This document shows positions 15,316 to 32,141 of a stretch of 64,000 bases of DNA, piece by piece. Origin of the DNA: a virus; the IMG/VR virus record IMGVR_UViG_3300042516_004811, positions 87,108 through 151,107 of that record. The stretch is one strand, 5' to 3'. Each line of letters begins with the position of its first letter. Within the stretch, counting starts at the first letter, position 1. Below the pieces are notes generated by a model that worked only from the letters and a program-made list of their open reading frames with translations, had not been told where the DNA came from and did no database searches. A program made the translations under genes and the position numbers.

Positions 15316-18300
15316 CTAAACAACACTTCTTGTTGTTTCAGATAGTGAGTTGTTTGCCCCAGACCATCTATCTTGATGCATTAAACGCAGAAGAGCATTT
15401 CGACTTAAGTTAGCAAATATTCCAGGAGTAACAGGGAATGACATACCATCATGTTTTCTTGTTTTTTCAAAGTGTGCATTATCTGAGTGTGAGTGCATTT
15501 TATTCTCAACGTCAAGCTGGGCAGCTATTCCACTTATTCTCTGGTCGGCATCGAGGCCAACAGAGTCTGTGCCTCCATACATCCTGACATCAGGACTCAT
15601 TCCCATGCTTTCAAGCTCAGTATGAACCTTGCCCCATGGGTCGGTTTCACCCTTTTCTAGTTTGAGTGTCCTAACTGCAGACGCAGGAAGTTTGAGTGGC
15701 TCCCCCGGTGGTGGCGTTAAATATGTATCAACTCCGTAAAGGTTGTCGAGTGCTCCAGGGTTGGCCGCAATAACGTCCTTTAACGGAATCATTATTACAT
15801 TGCTTGCTTCTGGGGTCTCTCTTTGCTGATGTCCGGAAACCCTGTGGTTAATAGAAAAATGTATTGTTCCCCTATATGTATCCCACGGTCTACCATTGTC
15901 ATCGAGTAGCGGTTGACCATTTTCATCAAGCATTGGGTAGTCGCCTGTTGGTCTTATAACTAAATTACCATCACTGTCGTACTGTGGTTCATATGTAGTT
16001 TCGTGGACGAGATACAGGTCGTCTACTGACAGGCCACTAAAGCCGTTGGACCGAGAGGGGCGTGCTCTTCTTTGTATTTCTTCTTCTGAAGCGTCTGGCA
16101 ATGCCCTTCTAAGTTCACTTAGGGTCTTCTCTCTTGCGGCAGCTTCCCTATCGATTGTTTCCTGTCGTAATTGGGCTATGTTTTTGCGACTTGCGTCAAC
16201 TGTCTTCTGTCCGGCCTCGGCAAGGTCATCAAGTCTCTTTTGTGCGTCAGTGTCACCGCGCGTTGCTGCATAAAGTATTGAACTTGCTTCTGTTTTTGAA
16301 TCATTACCTTCTTCATTAAGTCCAATTCCGGCAAGTGTCCACTTAATGGCCAACTCCCGGCCCTCGTCAGATGTCTCGTCAAGCCCAGAAATAACAAATG
16401 GGTTAATTGGTAAAACTTCAACATCAGATATATCTGATTCCCATGACTGTTCATTGGGAACACCGAAGGCGACACGCTTTCCGCCTATCTCGTAAACTTC
16501 TATTTGGTCACGCCAATTTTCCCCGAGAGAGATTGAAGCACGACTGCTCTTTATTTTGGAAGTTTGTGGGGATATCGAGCCAGGCTTAAGTGTTCTCTCC
16601 ACCCTTCCGCTAGAGAGGGTCACTCGTGGTTCGCCGCGAAGAACCGGCACTGGCGGTAGCCCGATGGGAGGCCCAGTTTCGCCCGCGTCGTTGATTGCCT
16701 CAACACCAGTTATTCTGTCTCGCATTTCGCGCACTCGTTCTGCGCTTGCATCTCGTAAGCGCCTTGCTCTGCGTCCAGCAGATTCACGCGCTGTAGCTAT
16801 TCTTTCCCTGTTTTCTGGTGTATCAACCATCCTGCGCGCGCCCCTTGCTGCAGAAACTGCGGCATCCTTGAGCGGTTCGGGCAGCCCCTCTGGGGCAACT
16901 CTATTCATTCTCTTAAGAATCATCTTTGCTTGTTCATCGTTGATTCTGTCGTCTTCCTTAAGTTTTTCAACAACAAACTCTGCTAGGTCTCTGCTTCCTC
17001 TTCTGGCTAGTTCCATTCCAAGTTTCGTGAGTGCAGCTTGAGGACCAAAACGCATCGCTGCGGCCGTATCAACGACAAGCTCCATGACTTCTTTCTCTTC
17101 ATCATCGAGGCCCATTCGTTCAGCTATCTGATTCATCGCCCTGCCCTTTAGGCGCTCACCGATGCCCTTTTTGACTGCCCCACTGCTAAGGGATTCGCTT
17201 TGCATGGCTCTTCTGAAGCCGTCTTCTCTTGTGCCAGATGAGTTGCGTCTCAGTATTCTTTCTATGCGTCTTGAAGCAACTGGAGAATCGTCAGAGCTTG
17301 ATGCGAGTGGTGAACGAACCGTTCCAGTTATGAGCATTTCATCAACTTCTGATTCCCTCATTCTCACATGGGCGCGCCTATCTAGGCCAGAATGCATTCT
17401 GTATGCGGTTTCCTCGATTAGTGAATGAAGTTCTTCATCTGGAAGGTTCATAATTAATTCGGCAACACGTGGGTCAATATTTTCCTTTGATAGTTCTGGG
17501 AATTCTTTTGAGCCTTTGCCTGAAAGTATGTTTCTTATTTCCTTAGCGTTGCTGGAGATTTTACTGCGTCGAGACTCGGTTCTCTGTGCTCTTGTTTGTT
17601 TTGGACCATATATTGAACGTCCGGATGACAATGATTCGCTTGCGCCCTGAAGGTCAACATCATCTATACCTTCACCAAAGCTTGAGCCAGCATCAACTAC
17701 CTGTTCATTGATGGATGAGTTTGTCTCTGCTATCTGTTTATCGCTGTCGTTTCTAGGGGAATCTATATCTCTGCTTTCCCGGCGTGCAGTCACATATTCA
17801 TTGACAACCTTGCCAACCCTATTGGATGCACCTTTTCGCCAAATTGCGTCATCAGTGCCGTTAGAAAGAGAATCCCTCAATGACTCGGCAGCCTCAACTG
17901 CATTCTTCTGAGATGAAACCTCCATGTAGATTGTTCCATCGTCACCACGAGACACAACACGCAAAGAGCCGGGAGGTAGAATGAATCTGCTCTCCCCATC
18001 TTCTCCAGGAGACGAGAATATTCCCTTGTCTCCCTCCTTCAGAGAAATTACAACGCGCTTCTTCTTCTTGCCTTCGGGGGCATCAGATTCTTGCTGTCTT
18101 GTCAGCTTCGTTGGTCTACGGCCCTTGGGCATAAGCCTGCCCGTAACGAGGCTGTCTATCTGAACATCTTTTCCAACAGAGCGGCCGGAAACCTTACCAG
18201 ACTCAACTTCTACGATTGCCTCAATCTCGAAAGGCTCTGTTATGGAGGTGGCATCTATCGCCTCCATTGTTGGAATCAAAACATTCTGCACTTGCCTATC

Positions 18301-21300
18301 AAGGGGGGCTTCAGAAGATGAATTTTCATCTACCTCAAGACCAAGCCTTGCAAGGCGAGCGTTGCGACGATTTATTGCACGACCAGCGGAAACTTGTTTC
18401 TGTGGGTCCAAAACATTAGAGATATCCACGTCTTCACCAGTACCAATCTGGCGAATGGCTTCACGTTGACGTGGCGTAAGTCGTCTTGATTGACTCGCCC
18501 TACGAGACTTAACAAATGAATCAGCATCCGCTTTCGATTTGAATTTTCTAGTTGGTTTTGGTTTAGGGCTGTTTAGGGCTTCAATTTTTTCATCGATTTC
18601 TTTACTAATTCTCGACCTGCTGCGTTTATCTCCACCAGCCCTAAGTTTTTCAATCATGGCATTCTTCATGGTGTCGAATTCTTCAGCTAGTTCTACTGAT
18701 TTGTCGACATCATCAGAATTTGCCTTCATCAGAACTTGGGTGTCGGCCATTTTTCTGATGGCTTTTTTATCATCGATTTGTGTTATGTCTTCAGAAATAG
18801 CATCAAGCTGTCTTGCTCTTGCATTTTTAGCAGCTTCCGATGGACTAAGTAGGCCGCGAGACTCCCTTAGTGACCCTACTTCTGCGTCAAATCTTGCGTT
18901 TTCCGAACGAGCACCAATTCCATACTTCTTTTTCCATTCACGACGTGCATCGTCGTACTTCTTCTCATGGAATTGAGCCTCTTCTATGGCTATATCAAGA
19001 AGCTCTTGTCTGGCTCTTGTTGCAGCATCTGTTTCTTCCGGTGTTAAGCCAGATGGGATTTCCGACTTTTCTATTTCATCCAGACTTTCTTTAGCGATAG
19101 TGTAATCTGTCGCTATTTCTGTAGCAACATCAAACATCTCCTCCTGAGTGAGTCCCGAATAGTCACTTCTGAAAGCTTTTAGAGTTTCTCTCCTGTCGGC
19201 AACCCTACGGACTAGCGCTTCTTCTGCCATTGCGTCTAGTTCTTCTGGCGTTATTCCAGGAAGAACGTCTGCTGTTGGTGAATCAATGTCTGGAGAATCA
19301 ACCTCATCCAGGTCATATGTTGCGCTTGCGATTGCTGCCGAAGTTTCAGCTCTCTTTGCCATGATGTCATCCATGAACTCCAGAACCGAGTCGACGTCAT
19401 CGCCGCTTATAAGTTTTTGTTCCCTCAGCGCATAAAGTTCAGCAAGGGCTTCTAGCGCCCATATTTCGCTTCCCTTTTCATATTCTCTTGGATATGCGCC
19501 AGAGAACTGAGCAACACCCTCTAGGCGGCTCATCACATCACCAAGTTCTTTAAGGTTTATCCCGTCAGCTGTTTGTGTCATCATGTTCATGATGTCGCCA
19601 GCGCTTAAGTCGTAAAGGCTATTTATCTTTTTCTGCCCTAGATAGTCGCCGCGCTTAGAGAACTGCGGAACCTCAAGCATTCCGGCTTTTGCTCTGCGGT
19701 CAATCTCCTCCATGAATCCCTGAGCCTGGACCAAGTGGGCAAATTCGTGTATCCCTATGTGTCTCGTGAATGATTTTGGACCATCTACGAGTCCAGCCAT
19801 GTGGCGAGCCGCAAGGTCAGCGTTTAGCATAAAATGTGAAAGAGCCATCTGAGATTCGGCGTCTGTTCTTCCGCCAATGGCAGCTATTGACAGGCGCTGG
19901 CCAGCACCCATGTTTGGAAGCATGGTTTCCTGGTTGCTCATAATCATGTCCATGTTGAAGTCGATTACCCCACGCATTTCCCCGGGTATTTTGACTTTTC
20001 TTGTTTTCCCAGTAACAGGGTCAGTCATGTCGATAATTTGAGCAGCATCGCGCATTAGTGATGTTCCGGCCTCGTGGTTCGAGTCCGAGTCGTACATGAT
20101 TGTTCCAAGAAACTTTGCTGCAGATGGGTTTCTCTTGAACTGAACTAGCAGGGACTCAAGGAATGCTCTTTCGGTTTCGTAATATCTTGCAGTATCAGCC
20201 TTGACCATGAGGTCTTGTTCTTCTTTTGAGAGTGAAGTCCATCCCTGAACGGCCTGTAGGCGGGCTGTGACAAACTGCTCGACTTGTTGTGGTGTCAGTC
20301 TTGGCTGGTCTACTCCGTTTGCGTTGACAAGGTTTACATCCCATCCGCGTGGGTCGCCATTATTAGCCATCTGTCGCAGTGTGTCAAATGCTTGACCAAG
20401 GTCTTCATTCGTGGCTCTCGCCTCATCACTTATGTCGACACCAAGGTCATCCAGTAGACTGAGAACTTCAGCATCAGCTCGCGCAATTTCATCTTGCGCG
20501 TTAATCATCCCATTAGTTGTTACGCGGAGATTTTCTGGGCCATCAACGTCACGCCAGTCAGGTGTTTCTATTCTTTCGCCAGTTGCTGCGTCATACCATG
20601 GACTGCGACCAATTCTTGCTGGGTCAGCATCAGCTAAGTCACGAAACCATCTTCCGTTGTAAACAAAGTCAAGTACATTTCGTGCACTGTTTCTAAGTCC
20701 CTGCATTTCTCCTTGGTTGGAGAGTTCTGCGGCCTGGCGAGCAGCAAATCTTGCGAATCTACTAGCACTGAACCCAAAGCAGTTTGAGCCCATGGCGTCC
20801 GTAAACTGGTTAGCTGCTGGCGTTCCTGGAGGACACCTAAACTTATTATTTTCATCTCTAAGTATTCCAACTGCTGCAGCTGCCCTTGCTAGCAATGAAC
20901 CGCCAGGAACTCGCGCACCAAGATTGGGTCCTAATGATTTTTCTTCTACGTTTTTGCCCTTGTTGAGCCTTCTTCTGCGTTCCTCCATTGTCATGCCTGT
21001 TGACATTGCAAATGGGTCGACAATTTTTTCAGAAGATGTGTCAACTTCGTCAGTCTTAGGGTTTACATCAAACTTAGATATTTTTATGTGTGGTTTATTT
21101 CGCAGCTTATTCAGCAGCTTGTCAAACGAATCAACTTCGCGTTCCTTTTCTGGAATCCAGCCAAAATTAGGCTCGATATCCATTCCGCGAATGCTCTCAA
21201 TTGTTGGCGATAGAACAAGCTTTGAGCCCGGTTCCCATCTGGCTTCTGGTTTCCACCTATACCCGTATGCGTTTTTTTCAACACCGGGCATTGATTCCCC

Positions 21301-21528
21301 GGTGAATTCACGCTTTTTATTGTCAGTGTTTCCCTCGTCTTGTTTGCGAGAGATGTCCCAACCAAGCGCCTTTACGGCTATATCTGCTTGAAGCCTGCCT
21401 GAGTAGACGCTTCCGTTGATTGATTGCTTGAAACGAAGCGCTCTAGCATCGAAGTCCCTACAGCAGGCAACTGGAGATACTAGACGTCCAGACGTTATTA
21501 CCCTGTGCTTTACCGGTTCACCCGACAT
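15316..21528 (-). CDS. 2070-aa multidomain (polyvalent-type) protein: zincin metallopeptidase + degenerate VIP2-like ART + others
   Basis: HEFAH...EALAELY, LTPRQREAI...GESRFILPPGSLRVV, and three LSSG motifs. Confidence 0.75.
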   Translation of the reverse strand: MSGEPVKHRVITSGRLVSPVACCRDFDARALRFKQSINGSVYSGRLQADIAVKALGWDISRKQDEGNTDNKKREFTGESMPGVEKNAYGYRWKPEARWEPGSKLVLSPTIESIRGMDIEPNFGWIPEKEREVDSFDKLLNKLRNKPHIKISKFDVNPKTDEVDTSSEKIVDPFAMSTGMTMEERRRRLNKGKNVEEKSLGPNLGARVPGGSLLARAAAAVGILRDENNKFRCPPGTPAANQFTDAMGSNCFGFSASRFARFAARQAAELSNQGEMQGLRNSARNVLDFVYNGRWFRDLADADPARIGRSPWYDAATGERIETPDWRDVDGPENLRVTTNGMINAQDEIARADAEVLSLLDDLGVDISDEARATNEDLGQAFDTLRQMANNGDPRGWDVNLVNANGVDQPRLTPQQVEQFVTARLQAVQGWTSLSKEEQDLMVKADTARYYETERAFLESLLVQFKRNPSAAKFLGTIMYDSDSNHEAGTSLMRDAAQIIDMTDPVTGKTRKVKIPGEMRGVIDFNMDMIMSNQETMLPNMGAGQRLSIAAIGGRTDAESQMALSHFMLNADLAARHMAGLVDGPKSFTRHIGIHEFAHLVQAQGFMEEIDRRAKAGMLEVPQFSKRGDYLGQKKINSLYDLSAGDIMNMMTQTADGINLKELGDVMSRLEGVAQFSGAYPREYEKGSEIWALEALAELYALREQKLISGDDVDSVLEFMDDIMAKRAETSAAIASATYDLDEVDSPDIDSPTADVLPGITPEELDAMAEEALVRRVADRRETLKAFRSDYSGLTQEEMFDVATEIATDYTIAKESLDEIEKSEIPSGLTPEETDAATRARQELLDIAIEEAQFHEKKYDDARREWKKKYGIGARSENARFDAEVGSLRESRGLLSPSEAAKNARARQLDAISEDITQIDDKKAIRKMADTQVLMKANSDDVDKSVELAEEFDTMKNAMIEKLRAGGDKRSRSRISKEIDEKIEALNSPKPKPTRKFKSKADADSFVKSRRASQSRRLTPRQREAIRQIGTGEDVDISNVLDPQKQVSAGRAINRRNARLARLGLEVDENSSSEAPLDRQVQNVLIPTMEAIDATSITEPFEIEAIVEVESGKVSGRSVGKDVQIDSLVTGRLMPKGRRPTKLTRQQESDAPEGKKKKRVVISLKEGDKGIFSSPGEDGESRFILPPGSLRVVSRGDDGTIYMEVSSQKNAVEAAESLRDSLSNGTDDAIWRKGASNRVGKVVNEYVTARRESRDIDSPRNDSDKQIAETNSSINEQVVDAGSSFGEGIDDVDLQGASESLSSGRSIYGPKQTRAQRTESRRSKISSNAKEIRNILSGKGSKEFPELSKENIDPRVAELIMNLPDEELHSLIEETAYRMHSGLDRRAHVRMRESEVDEMLITGTVRSPLASSSDDSPVASRRIERILRRNSSGTREDGFRRAMQSESLSSGAVKKGIGERLKGRAMNQIAERMGLDDEEKEVMELVVDTAAAMRFGPQAALTKLGMELARRGSRDLAEFVVEKLKEDDRINDEQAKMILKRMNRVAPEGLPEPLKDAAVSAARGARRMVDTPENRERIATARESAGRRARRLRDASAERVREMRDRITGVEAINDAGETGPPIGLPPVPVLRGEPRVTLSSGRVERTLKPGSISPQTSKIKSSRASISLGENWRDQIEVYEIGGKRVAFGVPNEQSWESDISDVEVLPINPFVISGLDETSDEGRELAIKWTLAGIGLNEEGNDSKTEASSILYAATRGDTDAQKRLDDLAEAGQKTVDASRKNIAQLRQETIDREAAAREKTLSELRRALPDASEEEIQRRARPSRSNGFSGLSVDDLYLVHETTYEPQYDSDGNLVIRPTGDYPMLDENGQPLLDDNGRPWDTYRGTIHFSINHRVSGHQQRETPEASNVIMIPLKDVIAANPGALDNLYGVDTYLTPPPGEPLKLPASAVRTLKLEKGETDPWGKVHTELESMGMSPDVRMYGGTDSVGLDADQRISGIAAQLDVENKMHSHSDNAHFEKTRKHDGMSFPVTPGIFANLSRNALLRLMHQDRWSGANNSLSETTRSVV

Positions 21529-21542
21529 ATCGGGGACCTCGG

Positions 21543-23120
21543 TTACTTATCGTCGATTGAGTCTTCGAGAAGCTGGAACTCGACGAGGGCCGCCATGAAA
21601 TCCGCATCACCCAGCTCCTCGCTCTTTTCCTTGCTTCCGGCAAGCCAGTTTGCGGGGATAAGGCTTTCGAGTTTAAGGTCGCGAGCGCGCTTCATAATAT
21701 GGCGCTTGGCAGCCTCTTTGTCTTTTGCCCTACCGAAAGCCTGAATTGCATTTCTTAGGTCGGACTCTGAAACGATTGGATATGAACCGTCAGGAAGAGC
21801 CATACCTTCCTTGGCAAGTTCCATTCTTCTCTCTTCAGAAAAAGCTCTCTTGATTGCAATCTCAGCTGCTTCTGCTTCAATCTGCTCAACCTCATCAGCT
21901 TCATACTTGTCATAACCGAGCACTTCGCCATCAAGGGCAACGAAGACGTCGTACGACTTTCCGTCAAATCCTTCGATTTCTACAGCATAAGCATCAAAAC
22001 CTTCGAAAACATCTGGCTCTACCGCAACAACATGTCCATCAATTGACTTGACGGCGATTTCTGCTGCTTCGGTGAAATCAATGAGCTTGTATTCAGAAAA
22101 GCCAGACTTCTGTTCAAATTCTGATTCATCGAGCTTCTGGAAGCCCAAAACTTCTGCGCTTGTTCCGTCGATGAATACTTCCTTGACGGAACCATCCTTT
22201 GTCTGTACGTCAACAACAAACATGTCTGCTGGCTGCGAGTAGCCGGAGTCAACAACAACACCATCGAACATTTTTTCTGCCAAACCTTCGACGTGTAGCA
22301 GTCCGGGCAGACCCTTTTCAGCAACACAACCACCTGGGCAGTCGTCGCAAACAGGAGAAGAACCCGCATAGGCTTTTCTCTCTATTGCACATAGATATCC
22401 GTGAGCGCCAAGGTCAGCTGTCTTTATTCCAAGGGACTTAATTCGTGACCTGCGAATGTCTTCCCACTCTGAGTCGCGAGCAGAGAATGACTTCTCGCCC
22501 ATAATGAGCTCATCGTCTTCGTCTTCCTCGTATTCCTCGTCCTCTTCGTCCTCGTCTGACATTTCTTCGTCTTCCGACATTTCTTCGTCGTCTGACTCTT
22601 CGTCATCATCTTCTGAGTCGATTTCTACCTCAAGCTTTGCAGCCTTCGCCTTGCCCATAGTTCTTTGAGCAGAAGACTCCTCGTCTTCGTCACCCATTGA
22701 CTCCATGTCCATTTCGGCTTCGTCAAGCGCTGCCTCTTCGCCCTCGTCATCAGCCATTATTACCTGGCCAGGAACTGGGACCCTCTTGGGCTTCATCTCT
22801 TTAGATGATTTCTCCATTGGCTCGCCGTCTTCGTCTTCTTCCTCTTCGGTGTCTGCCTCAAGGTCAACTTCCATTACGCCAACAACGCCACCTTCTGCAG
22901 GCTTCTTCTTCGGCTTCATTTCCGGAGCTTCCATGGCCATTTCCTTCTCCTCCAACTCAGAGGCGGGAACCATCTTCATCTCAACAGGCATGGCGCCGCA
23001 CTTTGCGCACAACTCCGAACCCTTAACAAAACCGCAGTCAGCGGCACTAGCGCCTTTGGCGCACTTAAGAACGTTGCCCTCGGCGTCAATGCTGACTGTG
23101 GCTTTCTCGTCGTAGCTCAT
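21543..23120 (-). CDS. acidic scaffold-like protein with two PepSY-like domains and a C-terminal DUF6582-like domain
   Basis: GGGAG RBS before ATG 23120. D/E-rich tract, IDFTEAAEIAV...YAVEI...DG...VFVALDGEVL, and ALPDGSYPI...NAIQAFGRA...HIMKRA. Confidence 0.7.
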   Translation of the reverse strand: MSYDEKATVSIDAEGNVLKCAKGASAADCGFVKGSELCAKCGAMPVEMKMVPASELEEKEMAMEAPEMKPKKKPAEGGVVGVMEVDLEADTEEEEDEDGEPMEKSSKEMKPKRVPVPGQVIMADDEGEEAALDEAEMDMESMGDEDEESSAQRTMGKAKAAKLEVEIDSEDDDEESDDEEMSEDEEMSDEDEEDEEYEEDEDDELIMGEKSFSARDSEWEDIRRSRIKSLGIKTADLGAHGYLCAIERKAYAGSSPVCDDCPGGCVAEKGLPGLLHVEGLAEKMFDGVVVDSGYSQPADMFVVDVQTKDGSVKEVFIDGTSAEVLGFQKLDESEFEQKSGFSEYKLIDFTEAAEIAVKSIDGHVVAVEPDVFEGFDAYAVEIEGFDGKSYDVFVALDGEVLGYDKYEADEVEQIEAEAAEIAIKRAFSEERRMELAKEGMALPDGSYPIVSESDLRNAIQAFGRAKDKEAAKRHIMKRARDLKLESLIPANWLAGSKEKSEELGDADFMAALVEFQLLEDSIDDK

Positions 23121-23237
23121 AGAACTCCCGTAAATGCAGGGAAATGCCATAGGGACATTAACCAATCAATTTGCTTAAATTATAACGTATCAGAACCTTG
23201 CGCGCTAATTAGTAACGTTTGCTAATTTGCTTGCCTG

Positions 23238-26200
23238 TTAATCGTTGGCGAAATTGTCTGGCTTAACCTTTCTTCTCTCTCGTTTTTTTCCAGAGAGTGT
23301 CTCGCCATCCTCTTCAATTCTTCTGCGTGCTGTCTCTAGCTGCTCTCTACTGAAGATGTCTTCAATGGTGTGATTCGTTCCAAATGCTTCATTGAATCTG
23401 TTGACAATCTGTTGTAGCTCGTTGCTGCTGAATCTTGGTTCATCGCCCTTTCTTGGGCTGAATACGGAACCTTTTCTCTTTGCTGACTCCGACAGATATA
23501 GGGCCATATCTGTGCTGTTTGTTATGTAGTTGCGCGTTTTTGTGCTGTTTTGCGGCGAATTCGGAAAACTCTTGTCAATAAATTCATTAAGTGCCTCATA
23601 AACAGCATGTTTCGCGTTGCTGAGTTCTGAATCCAGTTTTGAACCGGAGTCTCCATCTCGCCAAACAGAACTGGCGTCTGGAATGAGACCAGCCTTTATC
23701 ATCTGGTTGATATACGCGATTGGAACTCCGTTTTTCTTCCAGTCACTCTGTGCGCCAAGACCAACATCATCCATGCCGAACGACTGCTGCAGTCTTTCGC
23801 GCATTCTCTGTTGCCATCCCTTTTCTGGGATACCCAGATACTTGAGAAGAGCGTCAAGTTCAAAGTCCTTGCGCGCAGTCTTGTCAGCCCTTAGCTCCTC
23901 CGCAGAAACATCTGGCTCCTGTATGTCAGGAAGTTCTGCCTCATCAATTGACTCCTCCATGAGCATTTCCTCAACTGGTGAGTCACCCCTGGTGGCGCTA
24001 TCTTTATCGAATCGGCCGCTAGCACGGAATTGTGAAACCCTGCTCACCTCACCAAGTGAATCGTATTCCTCTGGGGAGATTGGGTTATTTTCTTCCTCGT
24101 CAAACCAGTGTGGGAATGCGTCCTTGCCAAATGTTTCGATTATGAATCGGTCACGCATGTTGGCCCTGCCAAGATTTTCCGCAAATCGTTCCATTACGTT
24201 CATTTCAGCAAAGTCTTCGTCTGCTCTTGTGACAGGGGCAAAAAGCCTCCATCCAGCAAACTCTGGCTGTTTTCCAAGTTCGGCAACAAGCATGCGTACC
24301 GCATCGTGGTTAATTCCGGCATCGGGGTCCGAAAGTTTTGCCGCATTTGGCTTGTCAAGGTTCAGCAGGGATGCCAGCTCATCATTGCTTAGTGGACGCG
24401 ATTGGGTCCAGGTAATGTCTTTTCTTCCGGTTCCTGGGTCGGTCTGGACAGAGTATTCCGTTGGAATTCTTATCGTATCCTTCAGTTTTTCCGTGGAGAG
24501 CATCCATGTTGAGGCTGTTGGGTTCTGGTTGGGGTTGTTTGACGAAACGCTACCAACAGTAATTTGTGGTCTGTCTGCCATTCTCTGTGAAACGTTGTTC
24601 ATCGCTTCGCGAATCTGTCTCTGTCTTGCATCAGTTCCAGAATCATCACTATTCACGTCAAGGGCTATGCCGGTTCTCTTGAATCCGTCCCATACGCGCA
24701 TTGAATAATCGAGTTCGCGTCTAGCTTTAGAGTTTGTTTCTGGGTTTCCAGACAACCTCAGACCTGCAATTCCCTGTGTGCTTGGTCTTGCATTCCTTGG
24801 TGCGCGCTGAGCTCCGCCCTGGCGCAGTCTGCGACCAAATCTTCCTTCTAGCTCCACATCGGTACGACCGCTAGAGAAGAACTCTTCTGGCGACGGACCA
24901 TCATTCCGCTTGCCAGGGCGACGATTTGCCCTCAGCCTGTCACGGTCAGCAAATCTTTGCCTGTCTTCGTCGGACCATGGGGTTTGACGGGAACGATTTA
25001 GTCTGCGGTTTCTGCGTCCGCGACCTGAGCGACCAGAGGAAAGGAAGTCAACGAACTGGTCCATGTCTGGACTATTGGACGCGTCCTCGTCACCGATGTC
25101 TTCGATTCCGTCGATGCTGGCGTCTTCGTCTTCTTTTTCCTCTTCTTTTTCTTTGATTATGTCGTCAATTGACTTGCCATCATCGCCACCACCAACTTCG
25201 TAGTCGCCAGGCTCATCGTCGTCGTCTTCGATTGTTGGTGTTGGTGCATTTATTTCCCCAGAGTATGGGTCAAACAGGCCTTCCGGCTTATTGAGATAGT
25301 CGGGCATTCTGCCGTCCTCAATAGCCTTGTCGATTGCCTCCCTTTGTCTTGCCGACACAGTGTCAGAGAGGTAAAGGTCGTATATTGCCTTGCCCGGGTC
25401 GATTGCTCTCTTTGCTCTAGTTAGAGCAACATAAACAATGTTGAGTTCCTCTCTTCTGGAGCGACTCTCAACTGGTTTTCCAGTTTCTGGGTCTATGTCG
25501 AGGTCTGGAGGATTACGGAAGTCAGAAGCAACGCGGACCCTATCCCACTCTCTACCCTTGGATAGCTGCGCGGTTGTTATTTCAACGTCAGCATTTGGCG
25601 TTTTTGCTGAAGTCCTCATGCGGCTTACTATGTCGTTGAGAATAAAAGCAGTTTCTTCGTCGGTATCGCCCTTGATAACAACAGTGTCTCCAAACTCTTT
25701 TCCAGAACCTTCCTTGTTTCGGAGACCGTTCTTCTTGAATTGGACTTTTCCACCGTAGTAATCACTATCCTCTAGGATTCTCATCATGTCTCTGAAGTAG
25801 ACACCCTGTGGCGCTTTTACGACTTTTCCAGTCTTGGTATCGGTGTATTCACCACCGCTATCAATGCCCCAGTCAAATAACTCAATGGCCCCCGTCCATT
25901 CGCCCTCACGCTTTCCGTTCACATCCGCGAGCTGGAGGTGCCACTGAACCTTGCTCTTTCCTTTACCGGTTGTGTCTGGAATTACCTCAAATCTTCTGGC
26001 ACGACTTGCTGTTGACGTTGAGGTGAAACCCGTTCCGCGCTGTGCAGATATGGTCTTTAGGTCATCAACATTTACGTCCTTGAGCTTGGAAAGATTGAGC
26101 ATCTTTCTCTCTGGAACAATGACTGGCGCCTTGATTCCTGGCGTTACGCCATTAGCGAACATGTTTCGGTATTCCCATGCCCTGCGTGGTGGGATTCCGA

Positions 26201-29200
26201 GGTTTTTATTGCCGCGAGTAACAAGCTTGTACATTGACTTGAGCTGTGCATACTGCTCTTGTTGAGCCCTGCGCTTTATTTCGCCAGCATCCCAAACATC
26301 ACCAATCCATGAAGACGCTTTCGGGCGCAACCCCTTCTTTGTCAGCTCTATCTGCTTATCTACCGGTGTATCCATTACGAACGACAAGTGCTCAAAGAAT
26401 GCTTTCATTTCTCTGTGTTTTGTCGCTGGAATCATCACAACGGGAGGGAGTTCCTGTCCGTTTCTGGTGAATCTCGGCTGGAAGTTTTGGATGAACTGCA
26501 ATGCTTCATAAATAATTGTTGCATTATCGCGCGTAAGGATTGCGTCAGCGTCCTTCATGTCGGCAACAAACTCACCAGCTGCTTCTTTTGAAAGAACATC
26601 CTTTAGTGACGCAAGCTCCCTGCTTCTTGCTGCCTCGTCCATATCGGCAAGAGCAACGTAACTATCTTCTACTTTTCGGAGCTCCTTGGAGAGAGCCTTG
26701 TTGATTTCAATACCTGAAACAATTTCATCATCAGACAAAGATGCAAGCTTTGTCTTGTACTTCTTGTCTGCTGCTTTGAGCTTTTCTCTTCTCTGGTCAA
26801 CAGTCATGCTTGTCATATCGAAATCATCACGAATGCCTTTTTGGGCAATTCTGATTCTGTCGCTCTTGTACTTTGACTCAATCTTTACTAAGGCTTCGCG
26901 GGCTCTTTCTGGGGAAAGGCCATCCATGTCGAAGTCGTTGTTGATTACATCAACAGCCAAACCGGCAACGTGGTGGAATCTGTCTTCTATTCCCAATTCA
27001 GAATCGTCAATATTGCCCTGTGACTGAATCAGGTTTGCCAACCAAGCAACAGTTGGTCCATAACGGAACGACTCATTCAATGGGAGGTCATAGTCGCCGT
27101 TTAGTGAGGAAAGAATGTCTTTAGCACCACGGAACGCATAAACTGCTTGCCTCTTGTCGCCAACAAGTAGAATAGAGAGATTGTCTCTGTTCTTATTTAA
27201 CACCTGCTCCATTACTGGGTTCATATCTTGAGCTTCGTCAATCATGAACATTGACAGCGGGTTATCCTTAGTTGCGTATCTCCGCGCGACCGTGGCCTGG
27301 AAGTTCTTGCCTTTCTGGCCTGTCTTTACAGAGATAACCACACGTCCGTCAGGGAGAATGTCCCCAACTTTTGTTTCCTTTGGAACCTGAACGTTTGCCT
27401 CTAGGTCTTTTCCTGTGGCATGACCAATCAAGCCAGGGTCGCTTCTCAGGTCTGGGTCGGTCATCGCCCAGAGTTTGTCTGTCTGCCCTTGGTCTGGAAG
27501 GACGATGCTGTCCGGGTCGGTAACCATGTTCCAACCATCATTGGCGTCTTTCAACCACTGGTCTGGAATTGAAGGCCATTCAGTGTCAACAATTGAATCA
27601 GATGCTCTGCCCTTGTTGATGTCTGCTCTCTTGAAGTGCTGTGGGCCGATTTTCTCGTCAGCACTGTTTGCGAATGCCTTGAGTGCCTTGTTAAGAATGT
27701 CTGCATAGTCTCTAACTGTTAGATTTACTCCCGCTATTGGGGTTGGCATTCCGGCACCCTTGCCAGCAGAGAACTCTTCTCTATCGGTGAGCTTGAGTGC
27801 TTTAATCCAGCCGTTTGAGTCAGATAGCTTCAAATAACCAAGGTCTCTCCAGCCCGGGTCGTACCCAACCGTCTCACCCTCTGTTCCATCAACTTTTGTG
27901 AACTTGATTGTTTGAAGTTTTCCGTCTTTGTCTCTTCTGGCAAATGTCCCTCTATCCTGGGTGGAAATTTTTACCTTGTCGCGGAACTTCTTGCCATACT
28001 TTTCGTCACCCTGACCGAGCAACAATGACCACCAAGACAGCCTGTTTAGTGTTGATACACCAGTGTTGTCGCTGAATTCAGCAGCAGCCTCTTCTTCATT
28101 CTTCTTGTTGAAAACAACGTAGTACGCCGTTGGTGACTTAAATTTGTCTCTAAGTTCAGAAAGTTTTGTATCCCTGTCCTCTTCCGACATTGAGGAAAGG
28201 TCAAACTTGTCATCATCGGTGCTGTACTTCTCGGAGATGAAATCCAGTTTTTCCTTTAGGGCTTCCGGTCGATTAATGAATCGCGTGATATCAAACTCGC
28301 GTTCAGCTGCGGCCATCAATGCCTTGAGGGTTGTTGTTTTCCCTGAGCCGGCACCAGCAGAAACAGTCATGATGCCTTTTTGCTCGCCAAACATTAAAGC
28401 AAGACCAGTATCGATGATGTCTTTCTGCTGCTCTGTTGGCTCATAAGAGAATCCATATAGGCTTCCGAAATGTGCCGTTCCTGGTGAGCGTTTTACGGCA
28501 CGAGCTTCGTCACCGCTCCTATGCTGGACTGAACCACGCGATGCACCACTGGACAAGCGTCCAGATACGTCCTTAGCTAACCCGTCGCGACCCTCACGAC
28601 GGATATAGCCGCCGCCGATAATGTCTTCATCAACGGTATTGAGGTTGCTCATCATTGCGCCGCTAGACAGGGCCTCGGTTGAAGCCTCGCCGGAGGCCTT
28701 TGAGCCCTTCCTCGTTCTCTTTGGCTTTTCTGCTGGAGCTGGAGGAACTATGTCCTCAATGTCTTCGTCGCCAAATGTTCCACGCACGCCACCAATTGTC
28801 GGAATCTTTGGTGAATCCTCAAATCCAACAATCATTGGGACTTCAGCGGTTGCCTCGTCCTTGCCCTTGCGCTCGCCATCCGGAATACCAGCACGCTTGC
28901 GCATGGTTGCCGAACGATTCATCAGGAAGTCAACAGCCTGCTGAGCTTGAGTAATTGCGTCTTTCAATGCCTCTGGACGGCTACGTAGAGCCTGGAGCCA
29001 TGAAGCCAAGTACGGTGCGTGGTCTTTTCTCACTGGAGCTTCAACACCCATTGCGCCAAGAGCAAATGCCGAACCAATCTCGGCAATAAGTTCTTCGAAT
29101 GCATAATCAGCATCACCAAACTGTTTGCCAAGTTTTCTGTTCATTCTTGATGGGTGTGATGTCCAGTGAACGGTCTCGTGGAATAGCGTTGAGTAGAAGT

Positions 29201-32141
29201 TCAATGGGTCCTTGAACTGCTCAAACTGCGGCATTGTGATTTCGTCAGCCATTGGGCTATAGAAAGCCCTATTGCCCTTGACTTCCTTCCATGCTGGAGC
29301 AATTTCTTTGATTACATCTTCCAGGTCCTGGAGTCTCTGCTCTGGTGACAACTGAAGAACATCATCTAATTCATACATTTCTGGTGGGAGACCCTCAACG
29401 TCTGCGACGTTCCAGACTGTGGTTGTGTGGAAGCCGCGATAGCTGCCAACTACATTTCCATCCCTATCGAGTATGGCTGTCTCTGTTTTGTTCGGAGCAA
29501 GAATCTGGACGCCACGCTTTTCCATGGCCTCCTTGCTTATTTTGCCGCCAATCTTTTTCCACTGACCAGCTCCGGCCCAGCGATTCGTCTTGTAGCCCCT
29601 AGCGCTGCTGATTAGTGTCAGCATCAGCTGGTTTGTTCCCTGATAAACACGCTTCTGGCCAGTTGCGTTTCTCGCCATGATTTCCAGTTGGCGCCACGGG
29701 ATTTCCCATCTCGCATTGCCTGGATTCTTGGCAATTTCTTCAAGAGCAGTAATAATCTGCTCTGTCATCTTGGCATAAACATCATCCAGAATTTGCTTTT
29801 GCTCTTCTGGGGTTACATTGTCGGAGTCAAGAACCTTTCCAGAGGAAAGTCTTTCACCTTCTTTGAACTTGTTGAGTGGGCCCTGATACTTAACCTTGTC
29901 AAAATCGCTACGCTTATTGTCTGGGGTGCTGAGGAAGCGCTGGTAACCGCTTGAGAGTTTGGTTACGTCTCCAGCATCCTGCTGACGCATTTCGCGCTCT
30001 GACATCTTCTCGACACGATTCATGTATTTGTCGAGTTCGTTGATTGCCTTACGCAGTCTCTTTATTTGGTCTGGGTCACTTGCCCCATCAAGAACACCCT
30101 GTAGCTGTTCTCTCTGCTCTTCAGCCATGGCCATTTTGTCAAACGACGCAACATCTGGGTCATCCACACGTGGAACCTCATAGAGCTTTCCACTCGAAAG
30201 TCCTGTTGCTGGCTTTGATACTGGCGCGCCAGGTGCGCCTGGCTTCTTGAGCTGCTCGGGGGATGGCTTTGGGTTGCGTATTGAGCCAGGACCGTCTGGG
30301 GTTGGGTCGGCCTGCGCAAGGGGTGTGCCTCGCATGAATAGGCCCTCACCAACAATTCCATCAAGGTCAACGTCTCTTGCGGTGAATGGGTCAAAGTCCT
30401 GAGCACCAGAGCTGGTGAAGAATCTTCCACGAGAGCGACCGCCACCAAGATTTGGTCGGTCAACCATTCGGCTACCAATTGCCCTGCCTAGGCGGTAGCC
30501 AATAGCCTTTTCTTCTATGCCACCATCATTTAAGGATTTTTTTTTTAAATTATCAAGCGCGGTATCAATTGCGTCGATGAGCTCAAAGCTGGCCCCCGAA
30601 GTGATAACAATTCCATCCGTATCCACATAAGCGTCGGCATAGTGGTAATCAAAAATTGGGTCGAGAGCCTGCTTTACACGGAACGCATACTGCGGCATTA
30701 CCGGAATGCAGTATGCGCCATTCATGTCATCGCCCTCGCGACCGAAGTCAGCGAGGCTCTTGTATTTACGATTCTTCTTGCGCTTACGCCCAATAATTCC
30801 TCTTAGAGCAGCTACGGCTAGTTCGCCTGGATACTTAACCTCAAGGTCCTCAAGGTAATCCTCTTCATTTGCTTCTGTCTGGTATTCGTAAGACTTCTTG
30901 ATGACAACATCACCCTTGACTACACCCTTAGGAATGACTGCAAATCTGCACTTACCTTCAGATTCAATGTCGAGGTCGATTATCTGGCAAGAGTTCCCAC
31001 CCTTGAAAAATACGCAGTTGGCGCACTTGACGCCGATGTTCTTGACATCATTTTCTGCGGCCGATGTGTACCCAGCCCAAACGCCATCAGCGTCTTCATT
31101 AAACTTGCCATAGCGCTTAACTATCTTAAGAAGAGAATCGCGGAGGTCAGCCTCTTCTGAGTCGATATTGTTCGGGTCGAACTGCGGACGAGGCTTTTTA
31201 CCTGAGTCCTCGTAATCAACTGGCGGAAGCGGAACTATTTGCATCCCAGCCTCGCCTGGCTTGATTGCAACAGGGATTCCCGGCATCTGCGAAGGACGCA
31301 TAATTCTTTCTGGGACTGACGGCATTCCAGGTGAAGCCATTGGCATCATTGGCATTGGCTTTGGAGCCATAGGAACACGCTGTGGTGGGCCAAACATAAA
31401 TCCGGCAGGTCCACGGCTGTAGTGGCACTTGTACTTGCCCACTTTTCCTTCGTCTTCCCTACGCGAGAAGGTAATCATGTCATCAGCAACGTCATCAATC
31501 ATGACCTTTGAACCGATAACCATCGATAGCTGCTTTTGGATTTCGTCTGTCTCGTCCTCTTCCATCATCATCATCGGTGATGGGGTCATCATTCCGCCCT
31601 TTTCATCTGACTTAACTGAGATTGTTCCAGTTAGCTGGTTTGCACCATGCAGAACGGGGGAGACTTCGTATAGTTCAAGCTCAAAGATGACATTTGCCTG
31701 AGATTTCTGGTCATACTGAGCGCGTAGCGTCTTGTAACCAATTGACCACTCTTGCTCCTCGCCAAAAAAGGCAACATTTGCAAAGGCTTCCCGGCCCTTC
31801 TCGGACTGAAGATTGAACTGGACGCGAGCAAAAAGTCCACCAATTCCAGCCATTTTCATCTTCATTGGCAAGCGATTATCGGTGGGAGGAACTTCGTAAA
31901 TCTCTAGAACTTTACCAATCGGGTCATTCCAGTTATGGCCCCATACAACACGTGGTTTTCTACGCATCAAGCTCTTTGTAAAAGCGCCAGTGGCAACGAT
32001 GTCACCAACTGAGTCCTTGTTTCCGATGCCAGCAACGAAACACTCGACAATACCCTGCGCCTCATTGAGGTTAACTGAGTCGGCCTTGCCCTCGGCAGTG
32101 CCTAGCGCAGTTGTCTTGTATTCAAAAACCTCACCTGGCAT
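23238..32141 (-). CDS. 2967-aa polyprotein: HK97-type prohead protease + 4-Cys domain + ArdC (ssDNA-binding + metallopeptidase) + UvrD-like SF1 helicase
   Basis: Protease: DSVGDIV..GAF, WGHNWNDPIG, WSIGY, LYEVSPVLHGAN. ArdC: WEIPWR, YQGTNQLML, HETVHWT, YAFEELIAE. Helicase: AGAGSGKT, IDEAQD, VGDKRQAVYAFRGA, SFRYG, SKGREW, YVALTRAK. Confidence 0.92.
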   Translation of the reverse strand: MPGEVFEYKTTALGTAEGKADSVNLNEAQGIVECFVAGIGNKDSVGDIVATGAFTKSLMRRKPRVVWGHNWNDPIGKVLEIYEVPPTDNRLPMKMKMAGIGGLFARVQFNLQSEKGREAFANVAFFGEEQEWSIGYKTLRAQYDQKSQANVIFELELYEVSPVLHGANQLTGTISVKSDEKGGMMTPSPMMMMEEDETDEIQKQLSMVIGSKVMIDDVADDMITFSRREDEGKVGKYKCHYSRGPAGFMFGPPQRVPMAPKPMPMMPMASPGMPSVPERIMRPSQMPGIPVAIKPGEAGMQIVPLPPVDYEDSGKKPRPQFDPNNIDSEEADLRDSLLKIVKRYGKFNEDADGVWAGYTSAAENDVKNIGVKCANCVFFKGGNSCQIIDLDIESEGKCRFAVIPKGVVKGDVVIKKSYEYQTEANEEDYLEDLEVKYPGELAVAALRGIIGRKRKKNRKYKSLADFGREGDDMNGAYCIPVMPQYAFRVKQALDPIFDYHYADAYVDTDGIVITSGASFELIDAIDTALDNLKKKSLNDGGIEEKAIGYRLGRAIGSRMVDRPNLGGGRSRGRFFTSSGAQDFDPFTARDVDLDGIVGEGLFMRGTPLAQADPTPDGPGSIRNPKPSPEQLKKPGAPGAPVSKPATGLSSGKLYEVPRVDDPDVASFDKMAMAEEQREQLQGVLDGASDPDQIKRLRKAINELDKYMNRVEKMSEREMRQQDAGDVTKLSSGYQRFLSTPDNKRSDFDKVKYQGPLNKFKEGERLSSGKVLDSDNVTPEEQKQILDDVYAKMTEQIITALEEIAKNPGNARWEIPWRQLEIMARNATGQKRVYQGTNQLMLTLISSARGYKTNRWAGAGQWKKIGGKISKEAMEKRGVQILAPNKTETAILDRDGNVVGSYRGFHTTTVWNVADVEGLPPEMYELDDVLQLSPEQRLQDLEDVIKEIAPAWKEVKGNRAFYSPMADEITMPQFEQFKDPLNFYSTLFHETVHWTSHPSRMNRKLGKQFGDADYAFEELIAEIGSAFALGAMGVEAPVRKDHAPYLASWLQALRSRPEALKDAITQAQQAVDFLMNRSATMRKRAGIPDGERKGKDEATAEVPMIVGFEDSPKIPTIGGVRGTFGDEDIEDIVPPAPAEKPKRTRKGSKASGEASTEALSSGAMMSNLNTVDEDIIGGGYIRREGRDGLAKDVSGRLSSGASRGSVQHRSGDEARAVKRSPGTAHFGSLYGFSYEPTEQQKDIIDTGLALMFGEQKGIMTVSAGAGSGKTTTLKALMAAAEREFDITRFINRPEALKEKLDFISEKYSTDDDKFDLSSMSEEDRDTKLSELRDKFKSPTAYYVVFNKKNEEEAAAEFSDNTGVSTLNRLSWWSLLLGQGDEKYGKKFRDKVKISTQDRGTFARRDKDGKLQTIKFTKVDGTEGETVGYDPGWRDLGYLKLSDSNGWIKALKLTDREEFSAGKGAGMPTPIAGVNLTVRDYADILNKALKAFANSADEKIGPQHFKRADINKGRASDSIVDTEWPSIPDQWLKDANDGWNMVTDPDSIVLPDQGQTDKLWAMTDPDLRSDPGLIGHATGKDLEANVQVPKETKVGDILPDGRVVISVKTGQKGKNFQATVARRYATKDNPLSMFMIDEAQDMNPVMEQVLNKNRDNLSILLVGDKRQAVYAFRGAKDILSSLNGDYDLPLNESFRYGPTVAWLANLIQSQGNIDDSELGIEDRFHHVAGLAVDVINNDFDMDGLSPERAREALVKIESKYKSDRIRIAQKGIRDDFDMTSMTVDQRREKLKAADKKYKTKLASLSDDEIVSGIEINKALSKELRKVEDSYVALADMDEAARSRELASLKDVLSKEAAGEFVADMKDADAILTRDNATIIYEALQFIQNFQPRFTRNGQELPPVVMIPATKHREMKAFFEHLSFVMDTPVDKQIELTKKGLRPKASSWIGDVWDAGEIKRRAQQEQYAQLKSMYKLVTRGNKNLGIPPRRAWEYRNMFANGVTPGIKAPVIVPERKMLNLSKLKDVNVDDLKTISAQRGTGFTSTSTASRARRFEVIPDTTGKGKSKVQWHLQLADVNGKREGEWTGAIELFDWGIDSGGEYTDTKTGKVVKAPQGVYFRDMMRILEDSDYYGGKVQFKKNGLRNKEGSGKEFGDTVVIKGDTDEETAFILNDIVSRMRTSAKTPNADVEITTAQLSKGREWDRVRVASDFRNPPDLDIDPETGKPVESRSRREELNIVYVALTRAKRAIDPGKAIYDLYLSDTVSARQREAIDKAIEDGRMPDYLNKPEGLFDPYSGEINAPTPTIEDDDDEPGDYEVGGGDDGKSIDDIIKEKEEEKEDEDASIDGIEDIGDEDASNSPDMDQFVDFLSSGRSGRGRRNRRLNRSRQTPWSDEDRQRFADRDRLRANRRPGKRNDGPSPEEFFSSGRTDVELEGRFGRRLRQGGAQRAPRNARPSTQGIAGLRLSGNPETNSKARRELDYSMRVWDGFKRTGIALDVNSDDSGTDARQRQIREAMNNVSQRMADRPQITVGSVSSNNPNQNPTASTWMLSTEKLKDTIRIPTEYSVQTDPGTGRKDITWTQSRPLSNDELASLLNLDKPNAAKLSDPDAGINHDAVRMLVAELGKQPEFAGWRLFAPVTRADEDFAEMNVMERFAENLGRANMRDRFIIETFGKDAFPHWFDEEENNPISPEEYDSLGEVSRVSQFRASGRFDKDSATRGDSPVEEMLMEESIDEAELPDIQEPDVSAEELRADKTARKDFELDALLKYLGIPEKGWQQRMRERLQQSFGMDDVGLGAQSDWKKNGVPIAYINQMIKAGLIPDASSVWRDGDSGSKLDSELSNAKHAVYEALNEFIDKSFPNSPQNSTKTRNYITNSTDMALYLSESAKRKGSVFSPRKGDEPRFSSNELQQIVNRFNEAFGTNHTIEDIFSREQLETARRRIEEDGETLSGKKRERRKVKPDNFAND
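30526..30549 (-). other. candidate frameshift/slippage site T TTA AAA AAA AAA with nearby out-of-frame stops
   Basis: T10 on the + strand at 30537-30546. The -1 frame stops at TGA 30528-30526 and the +1 frame at TAA 30532-30530. Confidence 0.5.

Follow-up and report, generated by a model that had tools for sequence, protein, structure and literature searches.

In retroviral Gag/Gag-Pol and picornavirus-type polyproteins, a structural or protease part is followed by enzymes, with short virus-specific cut sites, small spacers and ratio control by slippage, and the sites of herpesvirus proteases have the form V/L/I-x-A↓S. Among tailed phages, the T4 prohead protease gp21 acts on L/I-x-E sites in a system with capsid targeting sequences, and phiKZ gp175 and SPN3US gp245 recognize S/A/G-x-E sites (PMC5694885, PMC10052503). 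SPN3US gp245 cuts at A-x-E and removes N-terminal propeptides of 111-254 amino acids (aa) from head and ejection proteins (PMC10052503, PMC5694885). The tail protein Tal of phages TP901-1 and Tuc2009 is cut at a Gly-rich linker, at the site NGGGNSGGGD (PMC11409707). Polyvalent proteins, described by Iyer, Burroughs, Anand, de Souza, and Aravind in 2017, are giant multidomain proteins of phages and conjugative elements (PMC5512222); that study defined no cleavage motif or leader, favoured autoprocessing by MPTase domains, and placed assemblin-like peptidases at C-termini only (PMC5512222). Such giant proteins are widespread in phages and plasmids, which makes their packaging and conversion to working enzymes a matter of general interest. 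We analyzed a window of 64,000 nucleotides, the final 64 kb (positions 87,108 to 151,107) of the 151,107-bp phage contig IMGVR_UViG_3300042516_004811, in which the tetrapeptide LSSG recurs in two giant proteins, P0001 and P0002.

LSSG occurs six times in P0001 and three times in P0002, together with an FSSG at aa 2422 of P0001, and every coordinate given for these copies in the initial annotation was reproduced. The composition of each protein predicts 0.07 copies in P0001 and 0.08 in P0002, and shuffling reached the observed number in 0 of 20,000 trials for the six copies of P0001 and in 1 of 20,000 for the three copies of P0002, confirming that the motif is over-represented. The two proteins contain twelve SSG tripeptides, preceded by Leu (nine cases), Phe, Thr, or Asn. 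The TSSG at aa 576 of P0001 had been listed with the motif copies and must be removed from them, as it lies within a conserved leader domain in which relatives have T-x-P-G; the NSSG at aa 1429 of P0002 was likewise rejected, being missing from an 84%-identical homologue. Codons differ between copies, as had been pointed out before, with varied Leu codons and with both TCN and AGY codons at both Ser positions. Because the Leu and Ser codons vary in this way, selection appears to act on the peptide and not on a DNA repeat. A scan of the whole genome found LSSG within plausible genes of four proteins only, namely P0001, P0002, a third polyprotein (P0170) encoded just outside the window, and a tape-measure-like protein. 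It is nearly certain that LSSG is a selected junction motif. On the sequence evidence below, the general form [LFM]-[SA]-S-G may be a processing signal at the joints of virion-delivered cargo polyproteins for a single phage-specific factor, most probably a protease, and we assign this reading a probability of about 0.45.

The motif is kept in more than 190 homologues overall. All 47 homologues of P0002 (36-84% identity) carry three to six [LF]SSG, and two motif columns of their alignment are retained in 42/47 and 44/47 sequences. In 120 homologues of P0001, approximately 1320 xSSG include 1029 LSSG, 146 FSSG, and 41 MSSG, which places L, F, or M ahead of about 92% of all SSG, and a single protein can hold up to 22 motif copies when 1-2 SSG are expected. 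Counted as unique contexts, LSSG is found 733 times versus 7.4 expected, compared with 3-27 times for other orderings of the same four residues. The logo of the motif is [RKSG]-[LFM]-S-S-G-[RKA], with no information beyond positions -1 to +5 and with polar, disorder-type flanks; LASG is a minor variant, and the preceding residue is lineage-specific. About 568 IMG/VR contigs encode relatives, and every sufficiently long one among the 80 examined carries the motif.

Within a genome, the choice of Leu or Phe and the residue ahead of the motif are homogenized. All seven copies in both giant proteins of a 154.5-kb relative are FSSG, with zero LSSG. The residue at position -1 is homogenized in each protein, for example Arg at 12/13 sites, Lys at 14/17, or Gly at 9/9, and its identity within a protein is 0.384 versus 0.195 ± 0.005 after shuffling. 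Such homogenization is expected if many sites coevolve with a single recognizing factor, and the copying of linkers by recombination could contribute to it.

P0001 begins with an S78 protease and a scaffold-like core, followed by the leader, an ArdC-N/zincin module, a UvrD-type helicase, and a C-terminal domain, with LSSG separating the parts after the leader. No motif copy lies inside the Pfam matches to S78, ArdC-N (aa 787-873), MPTase-PolyVal (aa 953-1062), or UvrD (about aa 1250-2250), in agreement with the earlier remark that the ArdC and helicase domains are free of it. In the AlphaFold2 model of aa 1-1200, all five LSSG fall within or at the edge of segments with a predicted local distance difference test score (pLDDT) below 50 (Table 1), and confident folds occupy the intervals between them at 652-720, 731-765, and 781-1091, the last being the ArdC-N/zincin module. 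The alignment of P0001 homologues gives the same picture, as bins containing the motif are low in identity and rich in gaps (e.g., 0.11 with 59% gaps and 0.08 with 89% gaps) and the neighboring domains have values of 0.5-0.9; the region around the FSSG at aa 2422 consists of 89% gaps in more distant relatives. Counting the motif over homologues and overlaying it on domain limits and predicted disorder had been proposed as a check by the initial annotation, and both confirm an enriched, linker-located motif.

Successive motifs are a median of 150 aa apart. Of the inter-motif segments, 22% are spacers of fewer than 60 aa, which are very basic with a Lys plus Arg fraction of 0.25-0.32, and tandem copies 7-20 aa apart occur. 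These short basic segments, if released, could act as DNA-binding spacer peptides. One segment of this kind between tandem sites, aa 2371-2421 of P0001 (24879-25031, minus strand), has 17 Lys or Arg residues in 51 aa.

P0170 is composed of a leader, an LSSG, a module common to the C-terminus of P0002, a DnaQ-type exonuclease, a second LSSG, and a zincin-like domain with HEYGH. Its LSSG at aa 125 and 861 are both centered in low-pLDDT linkers, one of which is only 14 residues long between domains with pLDDT above 80. A Foldseek search with the P0170 model identified the DnaQ-type exonuclease and no other domain. Residues 123-543 of P0170 are homologous to aa 1636-2069 of P0002 (BLASTP E = 2e-53), and the alignment starts two residues ahead of LSSG in both proteins. 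Because this homology starts at LSSG, modules appear to be exchanged with the motif as their border. The motif is a short linear motif in disordered linkers that delimits swappable, domain-sized modules and short basic spacers. The tape-measure-like protein, a 1516-aa plus-strand product presumed to be the tape measure protein, carries two further sites that are conserved in the six genomes compared.

A second line of evidence comes from the leader. Residues 21-128 of P0170 are homologous to aa 541-651 of P0001 (BLASTP E = 1e-7), and both stretches end in LSSG. The leader spans about 100 aa and contains K-x-I-G-x-R-L-G-R-A-I-D-R-P and a D-x-D-x-D-G-x-V loop; the first of these reads K-A-I-G-x-R-L-G-R-A-I…D-R-P in P0001. 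It is found right after the protease-scaffold part in P0001 and from residue 1 in separate cargo proteins. A hidden Markov model (HMM) of the leader matches P0001 and P0170 only within this genome, and it matches 92 of 121 P0001 homologues at approximately aa 520-625. In 84 of these 92 proteins no motif precedes the leader, and the first motif follows at a median of 34 aa past it. In the P0170 family, in which relatives reach 6526 aa, all 14 proteins matching the leader HMM have 2-12 sites, compared with 0-1 in those with unrelated N-termini. One relative has split genes, with a separate gene for a 547-aa S78 protease followed by a 3352-aa cargo gene that has the leader from residue 1.

As an independent test of the leader, its residues 1-100 alone were searched by phmmer against 1.84 billion representative proteins. 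This search returned 29 new proteins of 204-6526 aa with the leader at the N-terminus, in which 180 LSSG occur in 70,000 residues. The first [LFM]SSG is located at aa 87-141 in 25/29 of them, so that leader (aa 1-100) and first site form, as a sequence pattern, what would be expected of the propeptides in prohead-protease systems. The P0170 sites, the tape-measure sites, and the leader were all missing from the initial annotation. The leader loop, D-x-D-x-D-G-x-V-x-E-G in its longer form (window 30270-30575; L001:7757-8056, both minus strand), resembles calcium-binding DxDxDG loops, and the weak matches of the leader search are calcium-loop repeat proteins. The leader also has a conserved basic amphipathic helix, K-x-I-G-x-R-L-G-R-A-I.

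The junction between the protease-scaffold part and the leader of P0001 is marked by a run of ten adenines (A10). The run and its out-of-frame stops are kept in the DNA of three relatives at 45-59% protein identity (loci compared: L012, L013, L014, and L004), and in a more distant relative the corresponding position holds a T7 run with a stop in a shifted frame. It is kept despite the codon usage of the P0001 gene, in which AAA is the minor Lys codon (33%) and TTA the rarest Leu codon (4%). Truncation of P0001 by slippage would give a product corresponding to the 547-aa protease that split genomes encode as a gene of its own. Judged from these sequences, slippage at A10 probably sets the ratio of free protease-scaffold to cargo fusion.

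These observations can be assembled into a working model. Cargo would enter the prohead by means of the leader or by being fused directly to the S78 protease-scaffold part, with the A10 site ahead of the leader setting the ratio of free protease-scaffold to cargo fusion. The near-invariant S78 protease, of the assemblin fold, would then cut at the motif. If Leu occupies P3, as it does in L/I-x-E of T4 and V/L/I-x-A↓S of herpesviruses, cleavage would be between the second Ser and Gly. Cutting would free ArdC/zincin, helicase, exonuclease, and other modules, and the freed modules would be ejected with the DNA. Cleavage of some kind at the motif is probable. The initial annotation had read the motif as a recognition site at which the polyproteins are divided into modules, and this proposal stands as the best-supported reading of a motif that is conserved, about 100-fold enriched, located in linkers and at module borders, and flanked by homogenized residues, with the cutting itself being the part that we infer. 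Its distinction between this motif and a Lys-specific head-maturation site had no basis, as nothing shows this S78 protease to be Lys-specific.

We tentatively favor the S78 protease as the cutter over the HExxH domains, at somewhat less than even odds. The S78 domain of P0001 matches the head maturation protease family of PHROGs (E = 2e-24) and is nearly frozen, with more than 100 columns invariant across 61 homologues whose cargo parts share only 35-45% identity. His69, Ser133, and His165 are invariant in these 61 homologues and are, by analogy, candidate catalytic residues. Every genome examined has the S78 protease fused or adjacent, and 2-10 LSSG are retained in nine full-length S78 polyproteins that lack any HExxH in cis.

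Several results weigh against this model. No [LFM][SAG]SG is present in the major capsid protein, portal, or scaffold candidates of this genome or of one relative. The tape-measure-like protein is not expected inside proheads, and since it carries two conserved sites in the six genomes compared, the substrates would not be confined to the prohead interior. The leader HMM finds no leader in P0002. The nearest cultured S78 proteases, at about 40% identity in actinophages (Gordonia phages Gray, GMA6, and DalanDe, Brevibacterium phage Cantare, and Streptomyces phage Gilgamesh), come with no enrichment of LSSG. No S78 residue tracks the choice of Leu or Phe or the -1 dialects convincingly, as the substitutions found (A50H in a single clade that uses Phe, E27Q with the Gly dialect) are confounded by clade. 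Finally, the S78 part was poorly modelled in the AlphaFold2 prediction of P0001 aa 1-1200, and no site was docked in the active site.

A serious rival, although an unlikely one, is that the cutter is an embedded zincin, namely MPTase-PolyVal in P0001, HEFAH in P0002, or HEYGH in P0170. Such a zincin could cut in cis or in trans, and might do so only once ejection has brought cargo and tape measure together into the new host. HExxH is present in all three polyproteins of this genome, autoprocessing of polyvalent proteins by MPTase was predicted by Iyer et al. (PMC5512222), and cutting after ejection would explain why the tape measure has sites and the capsid and portal have none. However, autoprocessing in cis does not fit the wider family, since the nine S78 polyproteins mentioned above keep their LSSG and have no HExxH, although one genome with a zincin-free S78 polyprotein encodes a neighboring 2224-aa protein with three HExxH. 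The three zincin-like domains are mutually unrelated, which makes one shared and almost invariant specificity less economical, the leader adjoins the S78 part and not a zincin, and known ArdC and TraC1 proteins travel uncut (PMC5512222). The earlier suggestion that the HExxH peptidases are the cutters is weakened by the same nine polyproteins and by the finding that the motif travels with S78 and the adjacent leader.

It is also conceivable, and we consider it improbable, that the motif is not cut at all and serves as a docking or hinge signal of proteins that leave through the tail, whether by contact with the portal, tube, or channel, in the order of ejection, or as a site for a host factor. 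All four carriers, the three polyproteins and the tape measure, are plausible ejected proteins, and the capsid shell proteins are motif-free. Set against this are the up to 22 copies per protein, the tandem copies 7-20 aa apart, and the exact placement at module borders, which are typical of polyprotein cut sites. Moreover, the arrangement of a leader and, at a fixed distance, a site has a parallel in the propeptides of head proteins known to be processed (PMC10052503), and motif-flanked modules are found as separate pieces in other proteins.

Very unlikely is cutting of the motif after injection by a host protease or an unrecognized phage protease. The tape-measure sites and the site-free capsid and portal would fit cutting outside the prohead, and the flank dialects could track host lineages. 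However, the S-S-G core is invariant across phages with cargo only 35-45% identical, and the linkage of the motif to the protease and leader of the phage itself is tight; to our knowledge, and without a test aimed at one, there is no host protease with LSSG specificity. An origin of the motif as a side effect of linkers rich in Ser and Gly, or of DNA repeats, is refuted: the linkers are indeed rich in Ser, Gly, Asp, Glu, Lys, and Arg, but LSSG has 733 unique contexts versus 3-27 for other orderings, about 92% of SSG follow L, F, or M, the copies use different codons, and orthologous sites persist between sequences of 36-84% identity.

The positions of all features are collected in Table 1. On the minus strand of the window, the genes are ordered as portal, P0001, a 540-aa protein, P0002, six smaller genes, and major capsid protein, which places both giant genes between portal and major capsid. 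The large terminase gene is transcribed divergently from these head genes, and the tail sheath gene (assigned by PHROGs) and the 1516-aa protein in tape-measure position are on the plus strand. The P0170-type gene is adjoined by a WhiB gene in relatives; this and the actinophage origin of the nearest cultured S78 proteases would agree with actinobacterial hosts.

Table 1 Features of the window and of P0170. Coordinates are window positions unless marked otherwise.
Feature	Coordinates	Strand	Remarks
Major capsid protein	7698-9059	-	
P0002, 2070 aa	15316-21528	-	Open reading frame, 47 homologues; HEFAH at aa 594; three LSSG in C-terminal third
LSSG, aa 1638 of P0002	16606-16617	-	Heads C-terminal module aa 1642-2070 recurring in P0170
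LSSG, aa 1447 of P0002	17179-17190	-	Followed by I-G-E-R-L-K-G-R-A, leader-helix-like
LSSG, aa 1300 of P0002	17620-17631	-	Orthologous site; [LFM]SSG in this column in 42/47 homologues
P0001, polyvalent protein, 2967 aa	23238-32141	-	Open reading frame, Pfam, PHROGs, 120 homologues
FSSG variant, aa 2422 of P0001	24867-24878	-	Ends basic spacer ahead of C-terminal domain; kept in 86%-identical homologue
LSSG copy 6, aa 2367 of P0001	25032-25043	-	Opens 51-aa Arg-rich spacer
Superfamily 1 (SF1)/UvrD-type helicase module, aa 1233-2246 of P0001	25404-28445	-	Motif-free inside; PF00580, PF13245, PF13361; phrog_1967
LSSG copy 5, aa 1196 of P0001	28545-28556	-	Immediately ahead of helicase; S1198 and G1199 invariant in 43 sequences
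LSSG copy 4, aa 1158 of P0001	28659-28670	-	In pLDDT<50 segment 1092-1200; alignment bin 59% gaps
ArdC-N and MPTase-PolyVal zincin module, aa 784-1083 of P0001	28893-29792	-	HExxH at aa 988-992; PF08401, PF18818, phrog_7245
LSSG copy 3, aa 765 of P0001	29838-29849	-	Immediately ahead of ArdC-N; start of pLDDT<50 segment 766-780
LSSG copy 2, aa 729 of P0001	29946-29957	-	Edge of pLDDT<50 segment 720-727
LSSG copy 1, aa 648 of P0001	30189-30200	-	First site past leader; in pLDDT<50 segment 633-651
Leader-like domain, aa 523-624 of P0001	30270-30575	-	Homologous to N-terminal 100 aa of separate cargo proteins
A10 run (TTA AAA AAA AAA), aa 532-535 of P0001	30537-30546	-	Five residues ahead of leader; stops in both shifted frames within 1-2 codons
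S78 (assemblin-fold) prohead protease domain, aa 28-174 of P0001	31620-32060	-	Pfam PF04586, 40.6 bits (cut-off 21)
Portal	32245-34332	-	PHROGs, open reading frame list
Tape-measure-like protein, 1516 aa	48948-53498	+	Downstream of tail sheath gene; homologues in five complete relatives
LASG, aa 36 of tape-measure-like protein	49053-49064	+	Column [LF]-[SA]-S-G in 6/6 genomes
LSSG, aa 568 of tape-measure-like protein	50649-50660	+	Gly/Pro-rich linker; column [LF]SSG in 4/6 genomes, LASG nearby in other two
P0170, 1210 aa	contig 82423-86055 (= L001:4424-8056)	-	Just outside window; third motif-bearing polyprotein

Among 50,697 phage records, no cultured close relative was found by DNA or by protein. 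P0002 has no Pfam or PHROG family match, and an IMG/VR search with P0002 alone gave no match. Its best-conserved stretch, aa 221-260 (20749-20868, minus strand), has an identity of 0.84-0.93 across the 47 homologues and contains F-R-C-P-P-G-T-P and N-Q-F-T-D. A metagenome search with the tape-measure-like protein returned only a near-identical fragment, and the S78 domain of P0001 has no sequence match among solved structures. The scaffold-like core of P0001 contains a conserved Cys cluster, G-V-K-C-x-N-C … C … E-G-K-C-R-F, at approximately aa 371-400 (30942-31031, minus strand), which may bind zinc; AlphaFold2 confidence is low in that region. Among the cultured S78 carriers, Streptomyces phage Gilgamesh (L008, MN234216.1, gene 48) has a 4624-aa gene upstream of the related protease, and Gordonia phage DalanDe (L009, gene 27) encodes a 1633-aa "capsid maturation protease" with S78 in its C-terminal third, both without LSSG enrichment. 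The capsid protein of Gray has a single FSSG, which is not conserved.

Taken more broadly, the locus may represent a large clade of tailed phages with a true polyprotein strategy, a possibility that we regard as somewhat doubtful. In such phages, a slippage-controlled protease-scaffold/cargo fusion and leader-tagged cargo would be loaded into the capsid, and cuts at a tetrapeptide code specific to each genome would then yield at least a dozen injected enzymes and basic peptides. The tape measure would be processed at this code as well, and phages would swap code-bounded modules as cassettes. Should the motif prove to be a cleavage site, the clade offers a readable cut-site code, a candidate loading leader, and a candidate device for the protease:cargo ratio. 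The proteins that hundreds of uncultured phages inject could then be read off their sequences one module at a time, the question of processing could be tested with recombinant protease and linker reporters, and a polyprotein logic otherwise known from eukaryotic viruses would exist in tailed phages. A full-text literature search found no paper that pairs LSSG with a prohead protease or with phage cleavage. New here are the rule that a leader precedes the first site, together with its independent test, the junction with its split genes and slippage run, the tape-measure columns in which the motif is conserved, and the statistic on flank dialects.

Comparing this locus with the described systems, the closest resemblance in layout is to T4 gp21, phiKZ gp175, and SPN3US gp245, which also combine an assemblin-fold serine protease encoded in the head module with a short consensus motif. 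The propeptides of about 20-250 aa that end at a motif on packaged proteins in those systems have their counterpart in the leader-then-site pattern, and extra sites inside a propeptide or linker give small fragments there and would do so here. However, the motif here has a small Ser-Ser-Gly core instead of a P1 Glu, and its sites are spread over many internal module borders, with as many as 22 in one protein, and are not limited to the end of a propeptide. Protease and cargo form a single fusion, the capsid and portal are motif-free, a tail protein carries the motif, and cleavage is predicted rather than observed. Like Tal, the tape-measure-like protein is a tail-borne protein with a site in a linker of small residues, which in Tal separates the structural part from the enzyme domain; the sequence and the protein are different, and Tal has a single site and no genome-wide code. 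The likeness to the polyproteins of eukaryotic viruses is one of analogy, in that a slippery run is found where the structural part meets the enzymes and short cut sites and spacer peptides would follow. There is no homology, a frame shift here would end the protein and not extend it, and both slippage and cutting are read from sequence. With the polyvalent proteins of Iyer et al., this genome shares the combination of ArdC-N, MPTase zincin, helicase, nuclease, and virion-linked domains, and the codelivery with DNA and proteolytic processing predicted for those proteins would be expected here as well. By their domain content, P0001 (S78, ArdC-N, MPTase-PolyVal, and UvrD helicase) and P0170 (DnaQ-type exonuclease and an HExxH domain) both belong with them, each joining unrelated conflict or nucleic-acid enzyme domains and a peptidase in one chain. 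Unlike in those proteins, the S78 protease is N-terminal here and is accompanied by a discrete tetrapeptide code and a leader.

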